DNA of 64,000 nucleotides from a virus: IMG/VR virus record IMGVR_UViG_3300025000_000065, positions 47,970 to 111,969 of that record; one strand, 5' to 3'. The translations under genes were made by a program, and so were the position numbers. This document shows, piece after piece, positions 3,101-58,707 of the stretch (position 1 is the first letter of the stretch; every line of letters starts with the position of its first letter). A model generated the notes under the pieces. That model was not told the origin of the DNA and did no database searches. It worked only from the letters and a program-made list of their open reading frames with translations.

Positions 3101-3120
3101 AATAAAATTATTGTTTTATT
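3101..3120. repeat. AATAAAA-N6-TTTTATT palindrome, copy 1
   Basis: AATAAAA ttattg TTTTATT, intergenic just after thyX. Confidence 0.7.
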
Positions 3121-17575: not shown

Positions 17576-18574
17576 ATGATTATAAAATCAGAATTAGAAC
17601 CACTAGACTATGATGATGTTTTATTAGTACCAGAACAATCATGTATTAAAAGTAGAAAAGATGTAAATATTTTTGTTACAGATAAAAAATATATGCCTAT
17701 TTTTTCTGCCCCAATGAAAGGAATTAGCAGTGTTCCATTCATAAAGGAATTGAGTAAATTAGGTGGAATTGGCATACTTCATAGATTCTTTTCTACTGAA
17801 GCTGAAAGATTAGAATCGATCATACAACTAAAAGAAACTAAAAATTACGGTATTGCCATTGGAATAAATCAATGGAAAAAAGAACTTACTTATGTTAAAT
17901 TGGCAATTGGCAATGGAGCAAGATTTATTTGTATTGATACTGCTACTGGTCATATGCAAAGAACCATAGATTCTGTTTATTCATTAAATGAATATAGAAA
18001 AGAAAGTGGATTAAATTTTGAAATTATTTCTGGAAATGTTGCCACATATGAGGGATCTTTTCATTTAGCTAAAGCAGGTAGTGATTTTATTAGAGTTGGC
18101 ATCGGTTCAGGGGGAGTTTGTGCCACTCGCAATGTCACATCTGTAGGAGTTCCAGATTTAACAGCAATTCAAGATTGTTCCAGTATAAAAAATCTTTATC
18201 CAAATGTAAAAATTATTGCTGATGGTGGGATAAAAAATTCTGGAAACGTAATAAAGGCTTTTGTGTTTGGTGCTGACTATGTAATGATAGGAAGTTTATT
18301 TGGGAAAAGTAAGGAATCTAATAATGGAGGTATATTACATGGAATGAGTTCTTATAAATTGCAAAATGAAATGGGGAAACACTTAAAATCCAATGAGGGA
18401 TTAGTAATACAAATACCCCAAGAAGAAATTAGACCATTGAAAGAAATATATGAAGAGTTTATATGGGGAGTTAAATCTGGTTTGTCATATCTTGATTGTT
18501 CAGATATTAATGAGTTACATAATCAAGAAGTGACATATATTAAAACAGGAAATGGAACTTTAAAAAAATTATGA
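17576..18574 (+). CDS. IMP dehydrogenase / GMP reductase family (no CBS domains)
   Basis: YDDVLLVP, DTATGH, GNVAT, GIGSGGVCATR (catalytic Cys), IADGGIK and GMSS. Confidence 0.85.
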   Translation: MIIKSELEPLDYDDVLLVPEQSCIKSRKDVNIFVTDKKYMPIFSAPMKGISSVPFIKELSKLGGIGILHRFFSTEAERLESIIQLKETKNYGIAIGINQWKKELTYVKLAIGNGARFICIDTATGHMQRTIDSVYSLNEYRKESGLNFEIISGNVATYEGSFHLAKAGSDFIRVGIGSGGVCATRNVTSVGVPDLTAIQDCSSIKNLYPNVKIIADGGIKNSGNVIKAFVFGADYVMIGSLFGKSKESNNGGILHGMSSYKLQNEMGKHLKSNEGLVIQIPQEEIRPLKEIYEEFIWGVKSGLSYLDCSDINELHNQEVTYIKTGNGTLKKL

Positions 18575-19176
18575 CAGAAAAAGAAATAATTATTGGAGTT
18601 GATTGTGATGATGTTGTTATCAATTTAGTTCCTAATTGGGTTAAAATGTATAATGAAGATTATGATGATAATTTGGATATTCAAAATATAACCGAATGGA
18701 AAATTGATAAGTTTGTAAAATGTGGTAATGATATTTATGATTATATTCATCCAACACCAGAATTCCTATTTAATATTTATGATTATTGTGAACCAATTGA
18801 AGGAGCACTTGATGGGATAAAGTCTCTAAGAAAAATTGGATTTAGAATCATATATGTTACAGCAAGCAATAAAATGGATTTTAAATATCAATGGTTAGAA
18901 AAATACGGATTCTTAGATAAACGAGAAAACTTCGTTCAGGCTTTTGATAAAAATTTAATTAATATAAATTTTCTTATTGATGACAGTTGGGAAAACGTTC
19001 AAAGTTTTATTAAAAATCCTAATAAAAGCGCAATTTTATTTAATGCACCCTGGAATACTTCAAAACAAGATAATTATAAAGAGGTCGATCATAGATATAC
19101 TAGAATGAATAATTGGTATGAAATTGTAGATAGTTTTACCTGGTTGAGCAAACAAATAGAAGGAATTTTAGGATGA
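18571..19176 (+). CDS. 5'(3')-deoxyribonucleotidase (HAD/NT5C family)
   Basis: GVDCDDVV, YVTA, LIDD and FNAPWN. Confidence 0.85.
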   Translation: MTEKEIIIGVDCDDVVINLVPNWVKMYNEDYDDNLDIQNITEWKIDKFVKCGNDIYDYIHPTPEFLFNIYDYCEPIEGALDGIKSLRKIGFRIIYVTASNKMDFKYQWLEKYGFLDKRENFVQAFDKNLININFLIDDSWENVQSFIKNPNKSAILFNAPWNTSKQDNYKEVDHRYTRMNNWYEIVDSFTWLSKQIEGILG

Positions 19177-19712
19177 AAGTAATAACTTTTTCTGGAAAAG
19201 CACAACATGGAAAAGACACGACAGCAAAATATGTAAAAGAAGTTCTTGAATCTTATGGCAAAAGAGTTGTTATTTTACATTTTGCAGATTATTTAAAGTA
19301 TGTTTGTAAAGAATATTTCAATTGGAATGGAATTAAGGATGAAAAAGGAAGAACCATTTTACAAAGGGTGGGAACTGATTTAGCCAGAAAAAATAATCCT
19401 GATATTTGGGTTAATGTAATATTAGATTTTATACTTGCTTTTAAAACAGAATTTGATTATTTTTTAGTTCCAGATTGTAGATTTCCAAATGAAATAAATT
19501 TGCTAAAAGTAAAATATTATTCAACCTATTCAGTGATAGTTAAAAGAACTAATTTTGATAATGGGTTAACAGAATTACAAAAATCACATCCTTCTGAAAC
19601 CGCTTTAGATAACTATAGATTTGACATTATGATTTTAAATGAAGAAGGATTGGATTGTGTAAAAAAGAACGCCATAGAAATTTCTAGAATAATGGAATTA
19701 CGTTCTGAGTAA
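19173..19712 (+). CDS. Deoxynucleoside monophosphate kinase
   Basis: SGKAQHGKDT, FADYLK, R.ILQ.VGTD, PDCRFPNE and HPSETALD. Confidence 0.85.
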   Translation: MKVITFSGKAQHGKDTTAKYVKEVLESYGKRVVILHFADYLKYVCKEYFNWNGIKDEKGRTILQRVGTDLARKNNPDIWVNVILDFILAFKTEFDYFLVPDCRFPNEINLLKVKYYSTYSVIVKRTNFDNGLTELQKSHPSETALDNYRFDIMILNEEGLDCVKKNAIEISRIMELRSE

Positions 19713-19767
19713 GAATTAGAACATGGATTTTTTTAATATTAATATTATTTTATTTAAGGAGGTATGA

Positions 19768-21681
19768 TTGGCAGAACTTAATGAAAAGGCAAAGAAAATT
19801 TTCGCATTAAAATATTCGAAAAATAAAACAAAAATTTGGAGTGAAAAATGTAGAACGATTGCAAAACAAATAGCTGAAGCAGGAAAAAATTATGGATTAA
19901 CAGATGAACAAATATTAGAAGTCGAAGAAGAATATTATAAAGTCATATATGATCTACTGATTCTTCCTGGTGGAAGAATAATTGCAAATGCTGGAACAGG
20001 AATAAAAAATCTTGCAAACTGTTTTGTTTTAGCTATTCAAGATTCTAGAAGTTCCATATATGAAGCGTTAAAAGATGCTGCAGAAGTTTTTGCTATGGGT
20101 GGAGGGGTAGGATATTCTTTTTCCAATATTCGAGAAAAAGGTGCTTTAATTAATTCTACTGGCGGTGAAGCTTCTGGCGCTTTGAGTTTTATGACATTGT
20201 TTGATCAAACAGGAGAAGTAATTCAACAAGCATCTAGGAGAGGAGCTCAGTTAGGATCTTTAATTGTTTCACATCCCGATATTGAAAATTTTATTGAATT
20301 TAAATCTAATTTAGATGTGAGAAATTCAAGATTAATGGAAGAGTATGATCGTAATTTAAAATCTTTTGATGGGAGATTAAAAAATACAAAATATGAAAAA
20401 GTTTTAGAAAAAACTCTTTTGGATGATCAATTAACTCATTTCAATATTTCAGTTCTACTCACAGATGATTTTATGAATGCAGTAAAAGAAAATCGTAATT
20501 GGGATTTGATTTCTCCTGCAACAGGAAAAGTTATAAAAACAGTAAATGCAAAAGATTTATTATTACGAATGGCAACTCAAGCTTGGGAATCGGGAGATCC
20601 AGGGGAATTATTTTATGATCGAATAAATGAAGATAATATGGTGAAATTTTTAGAATTAATTTATGCAACCAACCCTTGTGGTGAAGTCCCCTTATTGTCT
20701 AACGAAAGTTGTATTCTGGCTTCAATTGTTCTTTTATATATTTTTGATCAAAAAACAAAACAAATTAATTGGGATTTATTAAAGACACTTATAAAAACAT
20801 TGATTAGATTTTTAGATGATGTTACAGAAGTAACAGAAGCTCCATTAGATAAAATAAACATTGTTACAAAATCATTGAGACGCTTAGGCGGTGGAGTAAT
20901 GGGTTTTGCAGATTTATTAGTAGAAATGAACATTCCATATGATTCAGATGAAGCAGTTGAATTATCGGAATATCTTTCATGGTTTATTAATTTCCATGCT
21001 TGGGAAGAATCATTTAAATTAGCTAAAGAACGTGGTGCTTTTGCTTACTATGATTCGGAAAAAGTCGATCTCCACGTAGTTGAAAAAGTTTTATATGATA
21101 ACCCTTATGAAAAATCATATATTAATCGAGAAGAATTAAGACAAATTGGCGTTAGAAACGTTGCCTGCATCAGTCTTGCACCTACGGGGTCTATTGCTAT
21201 TATTGGTGGCGTAAATAGCGCAATTGAGCCATTTTTTGCCCTTGCCTATAAACGCAACATCACAGAGGGGGTGGGAAATATTGCTAAAGATTCTATCTTT
21301 GAAGTGAATCCTGCATTAGAAAGAAAATTAAAAGAATTTGGATATGATAAAGAGAAAATAAATAATATATTGGAATACGCTTCTTCGACAGGAACATTAA
21401 CCGGATGCAAATTAGTGTCTGAGGAAGTACAAAAATTATTCAAAACATCTAATGAGATTCCTTGGAAAAGGCATGTAGATATTCAAGCTGCATGGCAAAA
21501 ATATACAAGTAATGCTATATCTAAAACCATTAATATTCCTGAAGAAGCTACTGTTCAAGATATTTTTGATATTTATCTCTATATGTGGGAAAAAAGATTA
21601 AAAGGCGGAACTATTTATAGAAACAATAGCAAATCATTTCAAATCTTAGAGAAACCAGAAAATATACAAAAGGAAAAATAA
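19768..21681 (+). CDS. nrdJ: Class II (adenosylcobalamin-dependent) ribonucleotide reductase
   Basis: PGGR, NCFV, RRGAQ, TNPCGEVPL..ESC, APTGS, ISKTIN and KGGTIYR; no beta-subunit gene nearby. Confidence 0.85.
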   Translation: MAELNEKAKKIFALKYSKNKTKIWSEKCRTIAKQIAEAGKNYGLTDEQILEVEEEYYKVIYDLLILPGGRIIANAGTGIKNLANCFVLAIQDSRSSIYEALKDAAEVFAMGGGVGYSFSNIREKGALINSTGGEASGALSFMTLFDQTGEVIQQASRRGAQLGSLIVSHPDIENFIEFKSNLDVRNSRLMEEYDRNLKSFDGRLKNTKYEKVLEKTLLDDQLTHFNISVLLTDDFMNAVKENRNWDLISPATGKVIKTVNAKDLLLRMATQAWESGDPGELFYDRINEDNMVKFLELIYATNPCGEVPLLSNESCILASIVLLYIFDQKTKQINWDLLKTLIKTLIRFLDDVTEVTEAPLDKINIVTKSLRRLGGGVMGFADLLVEMNIPYDSDEAVELSEYLSWFINFHAWEESFKLAKERGAFAYYDSEKVDLHVVEKVLYDNPYEKSYINREELRQIGVRNVACISLAPTGSIAIIGGVNSAIEPFFALAYKRNITEGVGNIAKDSIFEVNPALERKLKEFGYDKEKINNILEYASSTGTLTGCKLVSEEVQKLFKTSNEIPWKRHVDIQAAWQKYTSNAISKTINIPEEATVQDIFDIYLYMWEKRLKGGTIYRNNSKSFQILEKPENIQKEK

Positions 21682-25208: not shown

Positions 25209-25246
25209 AAAAATAGACCATAGAAATTAATCCATAGTCTATTTTT
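25209..25246. terminator. Bidirectional terminator at the convergence of the two gene arms
   Basis: Stem aaaaatagac/gtctattttt with A and T tracts on either side. Confidence 0.65.
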
Positions 25247-25269: not shown

Positions 25270-26265
25270 TTATTCAATTCTTTTTAAATATTGCTTTCCA
25301 GCATGTTTTTCTGCAACCCATCCAATATTCTTATCAAAGATCCAATTTTCATAAGGAGCAAAAGAATTATCAAATTCTACTATGTTTCCTTTTAATAATT
25401 TTTTCCCCGTAAATGTATTTGCAGAAACTCTTGGTTGTGTCCTAATATTTAATTCATCTGAAACAACCTCAAATTTTATTGTTTTACCGTCATCAATAGG
25501 ATCAGTTGGATCTACAGGAGGGGGTTCAACAGGAGGTTTTGGAACAGTTGGGACTTTAAATTGAGCACAAAGTTGTTCAAAAGATCCTTTATAGTAATTC
25601 ATATCTAACCCAAGACTTTCAGCACCAAAAGCTAGTCCATCCCCTTTATCACTCCACTGCCAAAATGTAAACGTATCCCAAGGTGTAAGTCTTTTCACAT
25701 TATCTTCCATATAAGATTGATTGGTATAAGAAGCAATCCATAATGGATAGTTTTTCCATACGTCCGCATCTGTACCATGCTCAGCCCAAAAAAAAGCACC
25801 AGTATATATAATTGGTTTTTTACCAGAAAGTCTTTCCATCTCTACTACATAGTTCCATAAAATATCATATGCTTTTGGAGGTGGTGGATTCCAATACTCA
25901 AAGTCAATAACGGGTGGCAATTCACCAGGATCATTTTGAATAATCGACCATGCGTATTGCGCCTGTTTTTTTGGATCAGCAATCCAATCGAGAAAATGAT
26001 AAGCTCCTCTTAATAGCCCTGCCTGTTTTGAAGATTTCCAGTTATACAAAATATCTTCATCAGTCCATAAAGCTTGAGAAGATTTAATAAATACAAATTT
26101 AGCCCCCATTGCAACTGACTTTGTAAAGTCCATTTGTTGAGCGGTGGAATTATTGTCCTGCCATTTTGAAACATCAATGCCAAGTGTATAAGCCATAGAT
26201 TCCTCCATTGTTTTCCAATCATTCATAATCAACGGTAAAAATACTGTTGTTATTTCAGTTTCCAT
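25270..26265 (-). CDS. Endolysin: GH25 muramidase, Pro-rich linker and SH3-like domain
   Basis: GIDVSKWQ, FVFIKSSQ, RGAYHF, PPVIDFE, WIASY, FWQWS and DMN; PKPPVEPPPVDP linker; LNIRTQP (SH3b-like). A second in-frame start lies at 26196. Confidence 0.9.
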   Translation of the reverse strand: METEITTVFLPLIMNDWKTMEESMAYTLGIDVSKWQDNNSTAQQMDFTKSVAMGAKFVFIKSSQALWTDEDILYNWKSSKQAGLLRGAYHFLDWIADPKKQAQYAWSIIQNDPGELPPVIDFEYWNPPPPKAYDILWNYVVEMERLSGKKPIIYTGAFFWAEHGTDADVWKNYPLWIASYTNQSYMEDNVKRLTPWDTFTFWQWSDKGDGLAFGAESLGLDMNYYKGSFEQLCAQFKVPTVPKPPVEPPPVDPTDPIDDGKTIKFEVVSDELNIRTQPRVSANTFTGKKLLKGNIVEFDNSFAPYENWIFDKNIGWVAEKHAGKQYLKRIE

Positions 26266-26286
26266 TTCATTACTCCATTTTATATA

Positions 26287-26333
26287 CCCCCACATATGGG
26301 GTATATCACATCACGATACACCATATATGGGGG
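26287..26333. promoter_or_regulatory. Tandem NrdR-box-like operators upstream of the endolysin
   Basis: cccccacatatggggt (26287-26302) and acaccatatatggggg (26318-26333), 31-bp period; compare the NrdR consensus acaCwAtATaTwGtgt. Confidence 0.65.
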
Positions 26334-26343
26334 TTAAAAACCA

Positions 26344-26363
26344 AATAAAATCAACATTTTATT
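26344..26363. repeat. AATAAAA-N6-TTTTATT palindrome, copy 3
   Basis: AATAAAA tcaaca TTTTATT. Confidence 0.7.
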
Positions 26364-34432: not shown

Positions 34433-35941
34433 TTTTCTGTTGCTTTCACACCGCGAAGCATGTTACTGACCATTTTACAATGGCGATTAAGTATTTCTAC
34501 TTAATTCTGCAATTTCTTTTTGTTATAGTTGCAGAGCAGACCATATCTTTTTCTTGTTTTATACAAGAAAGATGACGCGGGAATTTATGTCACCACAAAC
34601 ACCCAATTGGTCGTTACGGATTCTCAAAAATTATAAATAATGACTAAAAATTGTGTGTAGTTTAGTCAAATCTTTTCTAAAAATTTCTATTAATTTAATA
34701 TTATTATCTTTACAAATATTTCTTTTTTCTTTCATTCTCTCAAAATAAAAAATTTTTTCTGGCATTCCAAAAAATTCTACAAATATATTTTTTTCAATTA
34801 CCCAATCAACTCGTTTTAATCCACATCTATCATCTTCACAATACTTATTATACATTTCCTCTTTTTTATAATTTATATCATTATCTATTAAAAAATTTGT
34901 TATTGTCAATTCAGACTTGGAAAAACATAAATCTTTATTTGTAGAATAATATGTATTAGATTCTCCAAATAAAGAAGAATTTGAATCTAAATTAGCTAAC
35001 CCACATGCATTTCGATATCCATCAAATCGTCTTTCAAATGTTTTTACAGATGGCAATCCATAAAGAACAAGTTCGCTACCATAAGGAGTTCTTCCTAAAT
35101 ATTCTCCTAATTCTTTTAGTTGTTCTATCATTTGATCTGCATCATACCATTTAACACTTTTTTCTTTAGTTTTATGAAATCCTAATTTAAGTGCCATAGT
35201 TCTTATGCTTTCCGGTTTTCTATTAAGAAAATATTTTTCACTCAAGTATTTATTAGTATAATGAGGATAAACGGTTTTTAATAATTTTATATCTTCGTTT
35301 GTCCAAGTTTTATTTACTTTCAATCTTAAATTATTTATTTTTGCATAAACACCAGATAAAGTTCGATTTAATTTTTTAGCAATTTCTTCATAAGATAATG
35401 TATCATAATTTTTTATTAAAAAATCAATTTCATCAGGTGAATAATCTCTGTTTTTTTCAACAATTATATTCAACTCAGAAGATTTATGACGAATTGAATC
35501 AATATTATTATTTTCTAAATTTTTCATTAATAACTCATAATTTCCACTAGGATATAATTCTTTTAATATTTTAATCCTATCATCCGTCCACTGATATCTT
35601 CCAATTCCCCAAGAAGAAATTAAATTTAATATTGTTGAAGAACATCTATTTACTTTTTTACATATTTCGTTTAATGGAATCTTATTATAATTATCTTTAA
35701 TATAATCTAATTCATTAGGCGTCAATGGTTTCTTTTTCATACTGTTTAATTATCCTTTTAAAAATATTCGCTACACATCAAATATTTTTTAATAATTTAT
35801 TTTTTTTTATAATTTTTGAGTCTTTCCTCGGAATTGTCTGCTTCCAGAGTTTTTCCGATATGGTCATCTTCTGAGATTTTTATTCTAATTATAGAAAATG
35901 CAATCTCTATATGTTACCATATATTCTGGCATTCTATTTTT
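34433..35941 (-). mobile_element. Group I intron (1509 nt) in the tape-measure gene
   Basis: P1 CUGGU/GCCAG with U-G at the 5' splice site; P3 GAUGAC/GUCAUC; P7 (A)cGACCA/UGGUC(U) within CCGUAACGACCA and AAGAUAUGGUCU; 15-bp stem flanking the ORF. Removing it restores the reading frame. Confidence 0.88.
34631..35740 (-). CDS. Intron-encoded putative homing endonuclease
   Basis: N-terminal HTH/Myb-like repeats (WT..I..LK..YP), LGRTP...LPS..TF.RRF repeat, and C-terminal SKSE...RVDW...VEFFG PD-(D/E)xK-like domain. Confidence 0.75.
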   Translation of the reverse strand: MKKKPLTPNELDYIKDNYNKIPLNEICKKVNRCSSTILNLISSWGIGRYQWTDDRIKILKELYPSGNYELLMKNLENNNIDSIRHKSSELNIIVEKNRDYSPDEIDFLIKNYDTLSYEEIAKKLNRTLSGVYAKINNLRLKVNKTWTNEDIKLLKTVYPHYTNKYLSEKYFLNRKPESIRTMALKLGFHKTKEKSVKWYDADQMIEQLKELGEYLGRTPYGSELVLYGLPSVKTFERRFDGYRNACGLANLDSNSSLFGESNTYYSTNKDLCFSKSELTITNFLIDNDINYKKEEMYNKYCEDDRCGLKRVDWVIEKNIFVEFFGMPEKIFYFERMKEKRNICKDNNIKLIEIFRKDLTKLHTIFSHYL

Positions 35942-37164: not shown

Positions 37165-38160
37165 TCATAAACCAAACATTTTATCTATAATTTCGTCTGT
37201 ATGATCTTTTGAATAATCTAAAGTAGTTTTTGGATCGGAATGATGAAGATAGACTTGAACTTGTTCCAAACTAAATTTTTTAGGAACTCCATCTTTATCT
37301 AAAATTCTTTTATCTTCTCCTTGTAATAAACATTCACATCTCGAATGTCGATAACTATGGGGAAAAATATTCATTTGCTTTCCTTCAATTTCACTCAAAA
37401 TTTCTCTTATTTTTAAAACCCAATCATAAATCATTTCATAAGAGGCTTCTCTTTTTTTATCACCACTACCAACAATCCATAAAGATTCAACATTATCTTC
37501 TCCACGTTTATCCAACCAAAGTCTTATTAATTCCTTGGTATCGTCTAGGTAAATTAATGGAAATATCTTTCCTCTTTTTCCTATGACTGCGTTAGTCTTA
37601 TTACTATTTAAAAGATTGTATTTTTTTATTTGAGCAATTTCATTTCTTCTTGCTCCACTATCAAACATCATCATATGGAGTAAAGCAAGTTGAATTTCCC
37701 CCATTTCCAATAACTTTTCTTTTACCCTTATGATTTGATCAAAAGTCATAAAAAAAGAATCTTCATCAGTTCTAACAGGCTCTTTCGGTAGTCCTTTTAT
37801 TTTTTGAGCCTGATTAATATCATATTCATATTCATCAGAATCTTCAATATAAGAAAGCATACTTCTACAACAACTCATTACTCTATTTACTCTAGCATTT
37901 GACATTTTTAAATCATCACTTAACCAAATGCTAAGTTTTCTAAAATCTCTTTTTCCTAATTCTAATAAATTTCTATTTCCGCAAAATCTTTTTACAAAAA
38001 TATTAATTATTCTGAGATCATTTTCATATTGTTTTATTGTACTTGCTTTCATTTTTCGTTGCTGATATTCTTCTAAGAAGTCCTGAACAATATCTTTGTT
38101 TTCTATATTTATGTGGGAATATTCTTCATCTGTGTATATTCTATTATATACTCTGCTCAC
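37165..38160 (-). CDS. Tyrosine recombinase (integrase/Xer family)
   Basis: SGARRNE, GKRGK, PHSYRH and LHHSD.KTT.DY; the R-K-HxxR-H-Y catalytic set appears intact. Confidence 0.9.
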   Translation of the reverse strand: MSRVYNRIYTDEEYSHINIENKDIVQDFLEEYQQRKMKASTIKQYENDLRIINIFVKRFCGNRNLLELGKRDFRKLSIWLSDDLKMSNARVNRVMSCCRSMLSYIEDSDEYEYDINQAQKIKGLPKEPVRTDEDSFFMTFDQIIRVKEKLLEMGEIQLALLHMMMFDSGARRNEIAQIKKYNLLNSNKTNAVIGKRGKIFPLIYLDDTKELIRLWLDKRGEDNVESLWIVGSGDKKREASYEMIYDWVLKIREILSEIEGKQMNIFPHSYRHSRCECLLQGEDKRILDKDGVPKKFSLEQVQVYLHHSDPKTTLDYSKDHTDEIIDKMFGL

Positions 38161-38169
38161 ATTCCCTCC

Positions 38170-38625
38170 TTATAAAATTCCTTGCTGTTTGAAATAAGTT
38201 AATCCAACAGCTAAAGAATCAGATTCATCATCATTATTAATTACTACATCTTTCCATTGTTTTAAAACAGATTTTTTAACTTGTTCTTTATCTGCTTTAC
38301 CACTTCCTGTAACGGTTTTTTTTACTGTAGTTGCAGGAATATAAATTTGTTCAGACTTCCATAATAAACAATTTATTACACCAACACATCGATAGATCTG
38401 TTGGGTAACTGTCCCAAACTTGGAAAACCCCTTTTCGATAATGACTAAATCAAATTCATATCGTTTTTTTAAATTAATAAAGAAATCTGCAATTTTTTTT
38501 AATCTAATTTGTGTTAAATCTTTTGGTGAAGTGGGAACACTAAAAACTTCAATTACATTTCCCTTTTCATCAAAAATAGATCCACCAGTATTCACCAATG
38601 AAATATCTAATGCTAAAATATACAT
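38170..38625 (-). CDS. ruvC: RuvC-like Holliday junction resolvase
   Basis: ILALDISLVNTG, IIEK, VKKTVTGSGKADKEQV and DESDSLAV. Confidence 0.9.
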   Translation of the reverse strand: MYILALDISLVNTGGSIFDEKGNVIEVFSVPTSPKDLTQIRLKKIADFFINLKKRYEFDLVIIEKGFSKFGTVTQQIYRCVGVINCLLWKSEQIYIPATTVKKTVTGSGKADKEQVKKSVLKQWKDVVINNDDESDSLAVGLTYFKQQGIL

Positions 38626-38633
38626 TTTTTATA

Positions 38634-38711
38634 CTCCCATATATGCCGATATACATCACACATACCCCCATATATAGGGGTATAAAATTTCTTGACCCCC
38701 ATATGTGGGGG
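38634..38711. promoter_or_regulatory. Triple NrdR-box-like operators upstream of ruvC and the recombinase
   Basis: ctcccatatatgccga (38634), cccccatatatagggg (38665) and cccccatatgtggggg (38696); exact 31-bp period; the first box overlaps the ruvC SD. Confidence 0.65.
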
Positions 38712-38721
38712 TATAAAATCC

Positions 38722-38741
38722 AATAAAATGTGAATTTCATT
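38722..38741. repeat. AATAAAA-N6-TTTCATT palindrome variant
   Basis: AATAAAA tgtgaa TTTCATT, at the same offset from the last NrdR-like box as at 26344. Confidence 0.6.
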
Positions 38742-38746
38742 ATTTC

Positions 38747-38790
38747 TAAAAAAATAGAACACGCTCGGAGATCCGAAACGTGTTCTATAT
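38747..38790 (-). terminator. Intrinsic terminator after the holin
   Basis: Stem atagaacacg/cgtgttctat followed by a U-tract on the - strand. Confidence 0.7.
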
Positions 38791-38806: not shown

Positions 38807-39115
38807 TTATGCGCTATTGTTTTTATCAACAATATGAAAAGCTTTAGTTCCTAAAACATAAGTAATTACAGTTACGACAACCATAAAATACGGAGAAGCC
38901 TGTGCAATAAGCTCCTGAGGAACAAAAGTTGTAATTGCTAAAGCCCCAATACCTAATAGAGAAGGAATGACAATCATTAAAAATTGTTTTACTTTAGCTG
39001 TTTGTGCTTGAAACCAATCCCATCTTTCAGCTAAAAATGAAACTAATAAAGCCCCACCGCCACCAGTCAACCAAATTAAAAACCCACCTAAATCTTGAAA
39101 TTTTTCTTCAGCCAT
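38807..39115 (-). CDS. Putative holin
   Basis: 102 aa, three hydrophobic segments, charged C-terminus, late region. Confidence 0.6.
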   Translation of the reverse strand: MAEEKFQDLGGFLIWLTGGGGALLVSFLAERWDWFQAQTAKVKQFLMIVIPSLLGIGALAITTFVPQELIAQASPYFMVVVTVITYVLGTKAFHIVDKNNSA

Positions 39116-40494: not shown

Positions 40495-40950
40495 TTATTT
40501 TAAATTATTAAAAAAAGTAACTATCATTTCTTTATTTTCAATCACCCATTTTGTAAAACTAATAAGTGATGTTCCAATAATTGATATCACAGCACCAGGA
40601 ACAAATAAATGAGAGTTCTTATCTATAAAAGATTTGAAAACATCTCTAAAATCTAATTGAAATTTTTTTTCAGAACTTTCAAATTTTGTTTTTAATTCGT
40701 TGGTCGTATTTGATAAATCAATAATTTTTGAAGATTGATCTTTTATTTCAAATGTCATACGAGTTAGTGTATCATCAACACCTTCAATGACGCTTGTATT
40801 TTTATTAAATGCAACTTCAAGTTTTTCTAATAATACCTCCGTAATGGCACTACGTTTATCTACATCTTGAATCCAGCCTTCCATCTTTTCAACTCTCTTT
40901 GTTAAATCGTTAATTTGTTGGCAAGGATTATTATGATTTTCTGCTGTCAT
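40495..40950 (-). CDS. Coiled-coil protein with a C-terminal membrane segment
   Basis: Heptad-rich N-terminus; hydrophobic LFVPGAVISIIGTSLISF; AGGAGGAG SD. Confidence 0.6.
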   Translation of the reverse strand: MTAENHNNPCQQINDLTKRVEKMEGWIQDVDKRSAITEVLLEKLEVAFNKNTSVIEGVDDTLTRMTFEIKDQSSKIIDLSNTTNELKTKFESSEKKFQLDFRDVFKSFIDKNSHLFVPGAVISIIGTSLISFTKWVIENKEMIVTFFNNLK

Positions 40951-41045
40951 GTAATAACTCCTCCTATAAAATTTTTAGGGGAGATTAAACCCCCATATAT
41001 TGAGAGAGATTTATTTCTCTCTCAATATACATGTTATTATCAAAA

Positions 41046-58632: not shown

Positions 58633-58707
58633 TAAAGGTGACTGGATTTGAACCAGTGATATCTACTTCCCAAAAGTAGCGCCTTAACCAGACTCGACTA
58701 CACCTTT
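58633..58707 (-). tRNA. tRNA-Pro (UGG), CCA not encoded
   Basis: Acceptor stem AAAGGUG/CACCUUU; anticodon arm CUACU-UUUGGGA-AGUAG; T arm ACUGG-UUCAAAU-CCAGU; discriminator A. Confidence 0.88.

Follow-up and report, generated by a model that had tools for sequence, protein, structure and literature searches.

The 64,000-nucleotide stretch of viral DNA analysed here (the window) comprises bases 47970-111969 of one 111,969-bp virus contig, IMG/VR record IMGVR_UViG_3300025000_000065, which has 28% G+C and an estimated completeness of 93%. On its minus strand, which carries the genes around both sites, an endolysin gene (site 1) and a ruvC gene (site 2) are each preceded by a tandem array of 16-bp palindromes resembling the operators of NrdR, a repressor of ribonucleotide reductase (RNR) genes. 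The NrdR tetramer, when it carries dATP as well as ATP, binds a pair of such boxes and represses, whereas NrdR with only ATP assembles into oligomers unable to bind DNA (PMC12051234). The protein has been reported in 77% of bacterial genomes, and its box has six conserved positions (C4, A6, A8, T9, T11 and G13), of which C4 and G13 are critical (PMC13584703).

At site 1, the boxes read on the plus strand start at 26287 (CCCCCACATATGGGGT) and 26318 (ACACCATATATGGGGG), exactly 31 bp apart, and occupy bases 22-37 and 53-68 upstream of the likely endolysin start. An initial annotation of this DNA had described two 16-bp palindromes with this spacing about 20-70 bp ahead of the endolysin, accompanied at a fixed offset by a palindrome of 7-6-7 layout, and had noted, outside its own interval of 26287-26363, that the composite recurs at 38634-38741. 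All three observations hold: the boxes at 26287 and 26318 span 22-68 bp upstream of the start, the 7-6-7 palindrome lies 10 bp from the distal box at both sites, and the composite at 38634-38741 contains three boxes (starting at 38634, 38665 and 38696) with the same 31-bp period. The elements of the two sites are:

26287..26302, minus strand (ACCCCATATGTGGGGG): promoter-proximal NrdR-type box of site 1, ending 21 nt before the endolysin ATG; 6/6 key positions; log-odds 28.8 against a matrix of nrdR-operon boxes
26303..26317, minus strand: site 1 linker of 15 bp, fixed in length and free in sequence among relatives
26318..26333, minus strand (CCCCCATATATGGTGT): distal NrdR-type box of site 1; 6/6 key positions
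26344..26363, no strand assigned: AATAAAA-N6-TTTTATT palindrome; relative to transcription it lies upstream of the distal site 1 box, at a distance of 10 bp
38634..38649, minus strand (TCGGCATATATGGGAG): proximal, degenerate box of site 2; 5/6 key positions, C4 missing; overlaps the Shine-Dalgarno (SD) sequence of ruvC
38665..38680, minus strand (CCCCTATATATGGGGG): middle box of site 2, with the full set of NrdR key positions
38696..38711, minus strand (CCCCCACATATGGGGG): distal box of site 2, part of a 31-bp insertion not found in loci L005 and L006
38722..38741, no strand assigned: AATAAAA-N6-TTTCATT palindrome with 1 mismatch (AATGAAA-N6-TTTTATT when read on the minus strand), 10 bp upstream of the distal site 2 box

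Box sequence, spacing and uniqueness

NrdR needs two 16-bp boxes and does not bind a single one (PMC13584703), and arrays of three or four occur naturally at T. maritima nrdJ and L. monocytogenes nrdAB (PMC13584703, PMC12051234); site 1 has two boxes and site 2 has three. The six key positions are complete in four of the five phage boxes, and five of the six are present in the box that overlaps the SD sequence. The linker of known operators measures 15-16 bp, with 14-17 bp (or 24-27 bp) tolerated, its length being important and its sequence free (PMC13584703; spacing PMC12051234), and all linkers in the phage arrays are 15 bp long. At least about 63% A/T is required between C4 and G13 (PMC13584703); the phage boxes have 62.5-87.5% over this interval (5/8 to 7/8), two of them lying right at the published lower limit.

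Because the flanks of the boxes are rich in C and G, the initial annotation had allowed for a different regulator. This concern is largely removed, since box 1 of E. coli nrdAB (CCCCTATATATAGTGT) itself begins CCCC and binding is unaffected by changes at positions 3 and 14, which makes such flanks compatible with NrdR (PMC13584703). The NrdR proteins of E. coli and S. coelicolor, moreover, bind each other's sites, a case of recognition across phyla (PMC13584703).

The arrays are unique within the genome. The consensus of the 16-bp palindrome, CCCCCATATATGGGGG, is matched five times at up to three mismatches, against 0.05 expected from shuffled sequences, and over the whole 112-kb genome the same threshold adds to the five boxes only a lone half-box at 40990. 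A looser test scored the six NrdR key positions alone, in pairs of boxes spaced by 30-33 or 40-43 bp; across the 112-kb genome, pairs with 12/12 key positions occur at the two sites only, and pairs with 11/12 elsewhere are at the level of shuffles. Against the nrdR-operon matrix, the scores of four phage boxes are 24-31 bits and the next-best genomic site scores 15.

Three smaller observations concern the same sequences. The half-box (40990-41005, CCCCCATATATTGAGA) adjoins a 14-pair hairpin upstream of the gene at 40495-40950 and has no partner at NrdR spacing. A box-like match at 26334-26349 (minus strand AAATAAAATGTTGATT), which takes in part of the 7-6-7 palindrome of site 1, keeps the register of the array at 31 bp upstream of the distal box, with five of the six key positions, C4 missing; it is probably a chance match, because site 2 has no equivalent. 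The site 1 linker (26303-26317) and those of loci L009 and L010 contain a small inverted repeat of the TATCG-N5-CGATA type, imperfect in the window, which turns the whole site into a palindrome of about 47 bp; no such repeat is present in L001, L003 or L166.

Occurrence at nrdR operons, in relatives and in other contigs

The pattern CCCYATAT-N23-CCCYATATRTRGG, which captures the tandem arrangement, was scanned against GTDB with one genome per species (185,579 species) and returned 31 loci, about 26 of them in Chloroflexota metagenome-assembled genomes (MAGs). In 6 of these 31 loci the pair lies 17-198 bp upstream of nrdR, recognised by its Zn_ribbon_NrdR and ATP-cone domains, and the gene for the RNR large subunit directly follows nrdR in four of the five genome-scan loci that were checked. 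Metagenome contigs, scanned in the same way, yielded six more nrdR-adjacent pairs among 80 loci, with an RNR large subunit following in three of the six. Over these 12 loci the 24 boxes have the consensus CCCCCATATATGGGGG, identical with that of the phage boxes, and the spacing is always 31 bp. The proximal box lies 17-33 bp from the start of the Chloroflexota nrdR operons in 7 of the 12 cases, a distance like that in the phage and its relatives L001 and L166, where it ends 9-31 bp before the start codon, and the gene order resembles the nrdR-nrdJ arrangement of S. coelicolor. The nrdR-adjacent loci act as a positive control: judged by the genes beside them, such sequences are real nrdR operators, though not shown to serve all Chloroflexota. 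Of the 151 Chloroflexota genomes sampled, 142 had NrdR; one of these genomes, G150, is unpublished, and no other result draws on it. With the published sequence rules observed and the same motif present at Chloroflexota nrdR-RNR operons, the proposal of the initial annotation that the palindromes are NrdR boxes, and with it the view that the arrays are NrdR operators, is well supported at the level of sequence.

Conservation upstream of lysins in related phages, which the initial annotation had put forward as a check, is also seen. The cassette precedes an endolysin of 38-56% identity in L001/L123, L003/L147, L010/L138 and L166 (L001/L123 and L003/L147 are the same contigs, and L010/L138 agree in length and match position), and in L009 it stands ahead of a syntenic open reading frame of 317 aa, which was not compared with the endolysin. 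In the alignment of the endolysin side, the palindrome and both boxes are kept, the linker is always 15 bp while its sequence varies, and divergence sets in downstream of the proximal box. Site 2 consists of two boxes in L005 and L006; the window and L004 carry an exact 31-bp insertion, amounting to one box plus one linker, and this indel keeps the phase of the array. Of 17 distinct boxes in the clade, 16 keep the six key positions unchanged, and variation is confined to positions 1, 5, 7, 10, 12, 14 and 16, where it is asymmetric and non-compensatory. Such variation is the signature of a protein site that follows the NrdR logo, not of a hairpin. In the window, the 31-bp insertion (38681-38711; box and linker on the minus strand) also creates a promoter-like plus-strand match, TTGACC-16-TAAAAT (38692-38719), which points away from ruvC.

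Beyond the clade, unrelated viral contigs with a G+C content of 47-58% also carry the tandem motif, which there adjoins scaffold/capsid genes, follows a capsid gene, follows an amidase gene, or lies between a prohead protease gene and the next gene; in L106, a relative with 42% G+C, the array follows the portal gene. Its presence in unrelated viral contigs makes a widely shared host factor likelier than a phage-private regulator. Further copies in Chloroflexota MAGs stand before a serine recombinase, beside tRNA genes and inside repeats resembling miniature inverted-repeat transposable elements (MITEs). The box pair of L023 is upstream of a large serine recombinase, pairs adjoin tRNA-like sequence in L025, L027, L028, L094, L101, L142 and L149, and one Anaerolineae MAG (L036, L039, L048, L050) has four NrdR-type boxes in a MITE-like repeat of about 150 bp with inverted ends (CGTACTTATTTAGCGT...ACGCTAAATAAGTACG). 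NrdR boxes may be common on Chloroflexota mobile elements.

Genes, transcription units and host

The phage is an SPbeta-like siphophage whose TerL has 40% identity to that of the Thomasclavelia phages TR-TP1/2 and 37% to that of SPbeta. On the minus strand, the head/neck genes (ending at 38807) are followed by a terminator-like hairpin, the palindrome and three boxes of site 2, and ruvC; the recombinase comes next, then the tape-measure and tail genes, gapless to 26376, then site 1 and the endolysin. The genes and hairpins concerned, with the RNR gene of the phage, are:

38748..38788, minus strand: strong hairpin resembling an intrinsic terminator (TAGAACACG...CGTGTTCTA followed by T7), which closes the upstream head/neck genes and is kept in the alignment of relatives
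38170..38625, minus strand: RuvC-like Holliday junction resolvase (Pfam PF02075, PHROG 159), the first gene past site 2
37165..38160, minus strand: Xer-like tyrosine recombinase whose catalytic residues (R, HxxR, H and Y) are all present, the tape-measure/tail genes coming directly after
25270..26265, minus strand: GH25 endolysin (Pfam PF01183, E 7.5e-32; PHROG endolysin) with an SH3-like C-terminal part
25209..25246, minus strand: 16-pair hairpin with a T-run, directly 3' of the endolysin stop
19768..21681, plus strand: phage-encoded class II (B12-dependent) ribonucleotide reductase NrdJ (TIGR02504, 579 bits), without an ATP-cone and without NrdR boxes

These hairpins delimit the units that the arrays precede. 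Given the strong hairpin at 38748..38788, any promoter for ruvC and the genes downstream of it must fall within the box-bearing stretch of roughly 120 bp, and the hairpin at 25209..25246 makes the endolysin a single-gene unit, in which no holin was recognised. A reading of the recombinase as a degenerate MrpR-like repressor was dropped, as its catalytic residues are present; a PDB sequence search with it gave no match. The region 17576-21681 encodes NrdJ and an IMPDH/GMP-reductase-like protein, neither of them preceded by NrdR boxes. A search of the phage genome for an NrdR or ATP-cone protein found none, so that the protein binding the arrays would have to be the NrdR of the host.

Translation of the endolysin most likely starts at the ATG at 26265, with the SD sequence GGAG at 26273-26276. 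Its first 23 residues (26197-26265; TTVFLPLIMNDW...EE) form an N-terminal extension ahead of the usual GH25 start (M-x-YTLGIDVS) and include a conserved TTVFLPLIMN. A (F/Y)LPL(V/I)(M/W)(N/S) motif occupies the same position in about 20 of the closest metagenomic endolysin homologues, or about 25 with F-M-P-L and Y-I-P-L variants. A link to Chloroflexota through a YLPLV-type N-terminal motif found no support: the motif was not enriched in Chloroflexota loci (280 kb) or in contigs that bear boxes (583 kb), and the literature searched did not mention it.

For a Chloroflexota host speak the CCCCC flavour of the boxes, found at nrdR operons in that phylum alone in the species scan, and the existence of low-GC (35-39%) contigs with the same boxes beside tRNA genes. 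Against such a host, or neutral, are the 28% G+C of the phage, its TerL, which was found in 0 of 401 Anaerolineae genomes, its GH25 domain, whose homologues in those 401 genomes reach at most 42% identity and have no boxes upstream, and the SH3-like tail of the lysin. The look-alikes of this C-terminus are SH3-type domains, mostly from Bacillota, and provide a lead only. The homologues of the endolysin and of NrdJ are almost all metagenome proteins, and a search of cultured-phage DNA with this phage gave no match.

The AATAAAA-N6-TTTTATT palindrome is far more widespread in the genome than the boxes, with 41 copies in 112 kb at up to one mismatch, and 15 in the window against 0.9 expected (among them those at 3101, 6611, 11770, 19021, 26344, 38722, 42897, 53670, 58585, 59527 and 61072). 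The copies are mostly intergenic, and the SD sequence of the next gene follows within a few bases (e.g., ...TTTTATT AGGAGA...ATG). With so little space for a promoter, the palindrome seems as likely to act at the RNA level or inside operons as to be a DNA site. NrdR boxes accompany only two of the copies. Elsewhere on the contig, the first and last 200 bases have about 100 near-identical bases in common, which may be an imperfect terminal repeat or the ends of paralogous genes. Rfam models, run over the whole window at gathering thresholds, matched only tRNA-Pro (58633-58707), and no group I intron model matched at 34433-35941, in the region of the tape-measure gene.

Interpretation and comparison with known systems

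On balance, and with modest confidence, we favour the reading that both arrays are operators for host NrdR that head two late transcription units and form a late switch coupled to replication. Under this proposal, which draws on published NrdR biochemistry, a high level of dATP relative to ATP would keep NrdR bound and the tail, recombination and lysis units off, and phage replication, by drawing deoxynucleoside triphosphates (dNTPs) down, would release NrdR and allow the late units to come on. Site 1 would control the single-gene endolysin unit, and ruvC and the tyrosine recombinase would be under the control of site 2, as probably would the gapless tape-measure and tail genes; the geometry of repression could be that of promoter occlusion or of a roadblock. 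The phage would thereby couple its late genes to replication without a regulator of its own, perhaps with an extra lock in the lysogen. Release of NrdR during phage replication is realistic, given that lytic pneumophage infection of S. pneumoniae strongly induces the nrdR regulon (PMC6755750). Late gene expression is probably tied to the dNTP state of the host.

The initial annotation had gone further and proposed that the operators gate lysis. That an array heads the endolysin stands, but the larger array, at site 2, heads ruvC, the recombinase and probably the tail genes, so that the link would be to late genes generally and not to lysis specifically. A "lysis timer" is only an inference, and the term overstates what is seen because no holin is recognised in the endolysin unit.

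Several findings weigh against host NrdR as the regulator of these units. The arrays precede the endolysin and ruvC and not an RNR operon, and there is no box pair at the phage nrdJ (19768-21681); if NrdR operators, they would therefore belong to a non-canonical regulon and not be classical members. A search for canonical sigma-70 promoters gave no -35/-10 pair oriented with the genes at site 1 or site 2, and SPbeta, TR-TP1, Clostridioides phage ES-S-0107-01 and L007, the first three of them cultured relatives, lack strict box pairs. The pattern that retrieved the nrdR-adjacent loci had itself been taken from the phage boxes, which introduces ascertainment bias. In 29 evenly sampled Chloroflexota regions upstream of nrdR, with locus L070 of the unpublished genome G150 left out, mostly generic ACAC-type boxes or nothing clear were found, so the CCCCC flavour is not phylum-wide. 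Finally, positions 2, 3 and 15 of the boxes are invariant, which is stricter than the known NrdR rules and hints at an extra or different constraint.

That last point leads to an alternative in which a different dimeric DNA-binding protein, either encoded by the phage or a host factor other than NrdR, shares the CCCC-ATATAT-GGGG core, the C/G flanks reflecting its own preference. The three invariant positions are without importance for the NrdR of E. coli and S. coelicolor (PMC13584703), and each array always lies 10 bp from a phage-specific palindrome, both of which would suit such a protein. It would leave unexplained, however, why an identical motif with the same 31-bp spacing stands at nrdR-RNR operons and why the motif recurs in unrelated phages of very different GC content, and all variation among the boxes respects the NrdR key positions; we consider it quite unlikely. 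The same evidence for NrdR identity would equally serve a role as a sponge, the decoy alternative raised in the initial annotation, in which amplified genomes, in hundreds of copies with five boxes each, would titrate scarce NrdR, derepress the RNR of the host and raise dNTPs, the position ahead of late genes being secondary. A box number that differs by whole units among relatives, the different placement of arrays in the wider clade (e.g., after the portal gene in L106) and the dNTP-supplying genes that the phage itself carries, for NrdJ and a GMP-reductase-like protein, are in keeping with titration. Yet the closer relatives hold the array at a fixed distance from the start codon, the SD sequence and the 7-6-7 palindrome even where the endolysins are only 38% identical, and site 2 fills the sole promoter space after the terminator, a placement that a pure sponge does not need. 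As the principal function, titration is therefore unlikely, although sponge and cis-control roles are not mutually exclusive.

A reading of the boxes as structures or recombination sites appears very improbable. As RNA, the region folds well (-37.7 kcal/mol, z = -3.95), as might be expected if the boxes were hairpins of a 5' untranslated region, in RNA or DNA, acting in stability or processing; two similar palindromes fold well automatically, though, the substitutions in relatives are asymmetric and non-compensatory, no T-run follows the boxes, and no Rfam family matches them. Some boxes extend to symmetric arms of 9-10 bp around a 6-bp AT core, in the manner of recombinase cores, and an apparently active Xer-like recombinase and RuvC follow site 2, so that the boxes might be core sites for these enzymes. 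There is no recombinase near site 1, however, the identical motif stands at nrdR-RNR operons, where a dif/att-like core site would not be expected, and neither version explains the association with nrdR and RNR genes.

The preferred reading, that host NrdR controls the two late units, could extend further: several unrelated phage lineages may wire virion, recombination and lysis units to NrdR, its release serving as a late switch, and the flavour of the boxes could betray the lineage of the host. We regard this broader proposal as possible but lean slightly against it. A literature search turned up no account of NrdR boxes in control of late, lysis or recombination genes of phages; to the initial annotation, too, no described NrdR-controlled lysis circuit was known. 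NrdR is seen as a repressor dedicated to ribonucleotide reductase genes. If the proposal for the two arrays is true, its regulon extends into mobile elements, and phages time their late genes by the nucleotide economy of the cell without a regulator of their own, which could explain how lysis is scheduled in large uncultured phages that lack recognisable late regulators; the box flavour might also become a marker for host prediction.

NrdR and its operator are well known, and their use before phage late genes would be a new variant of that system. The arrays share paired 16-bp partial palindromes and the six key positions with the NrdR operators at the RNR promoters of S. coelicolor (nrdRJ, nrdAB), E. 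coli (nrdAB, nrdHIEF, nrdDG), L. monocytogenes (nrdAB, nrdDG) and T. maritima (nrdJ), and resemble known operators as well in their 15-bp linker of free sequence, AT-rich core, promoter-proximal position and occurrence in arrays, which number three to four boxes in some of those systems (PMC13584703, PMC12051234). Unlike these operators, the phage arrays head an endolysin gene and a ruvC-recombinase-tail operon while the RNR of the phage is without boxes, their C/G flanks are stricter than those of the general logo, and a palindrome stands at a fixed distance of 10 bp. Phages and prophage-derived lysis modules are known to use the LexA (SOS) boxes of their hosts, as in coliphage 186 tum and CTXphi rstA. 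The likeness to the arrays is that a phage would take over an operator belonging to a conserved host repressor, one that reports on the physiological state of the cell, with no sensor of its own; with LexA, the signal is DNA damage and the target the lysis-lysogeny switch, whereas here the signal would be the dATP/ATP balance and the targets late and lysis genes. Late transcription in T4 is coupled to replication through the sliding clamp gp45 with gp55 and gp33, and the proposed outcome is the same, in that late genes are expressed only once replication is under way. In T4, however, phage proteins track the replicating DNA, whereas in the system proposed here a nucleotide-sensing repressor of the host would be released.
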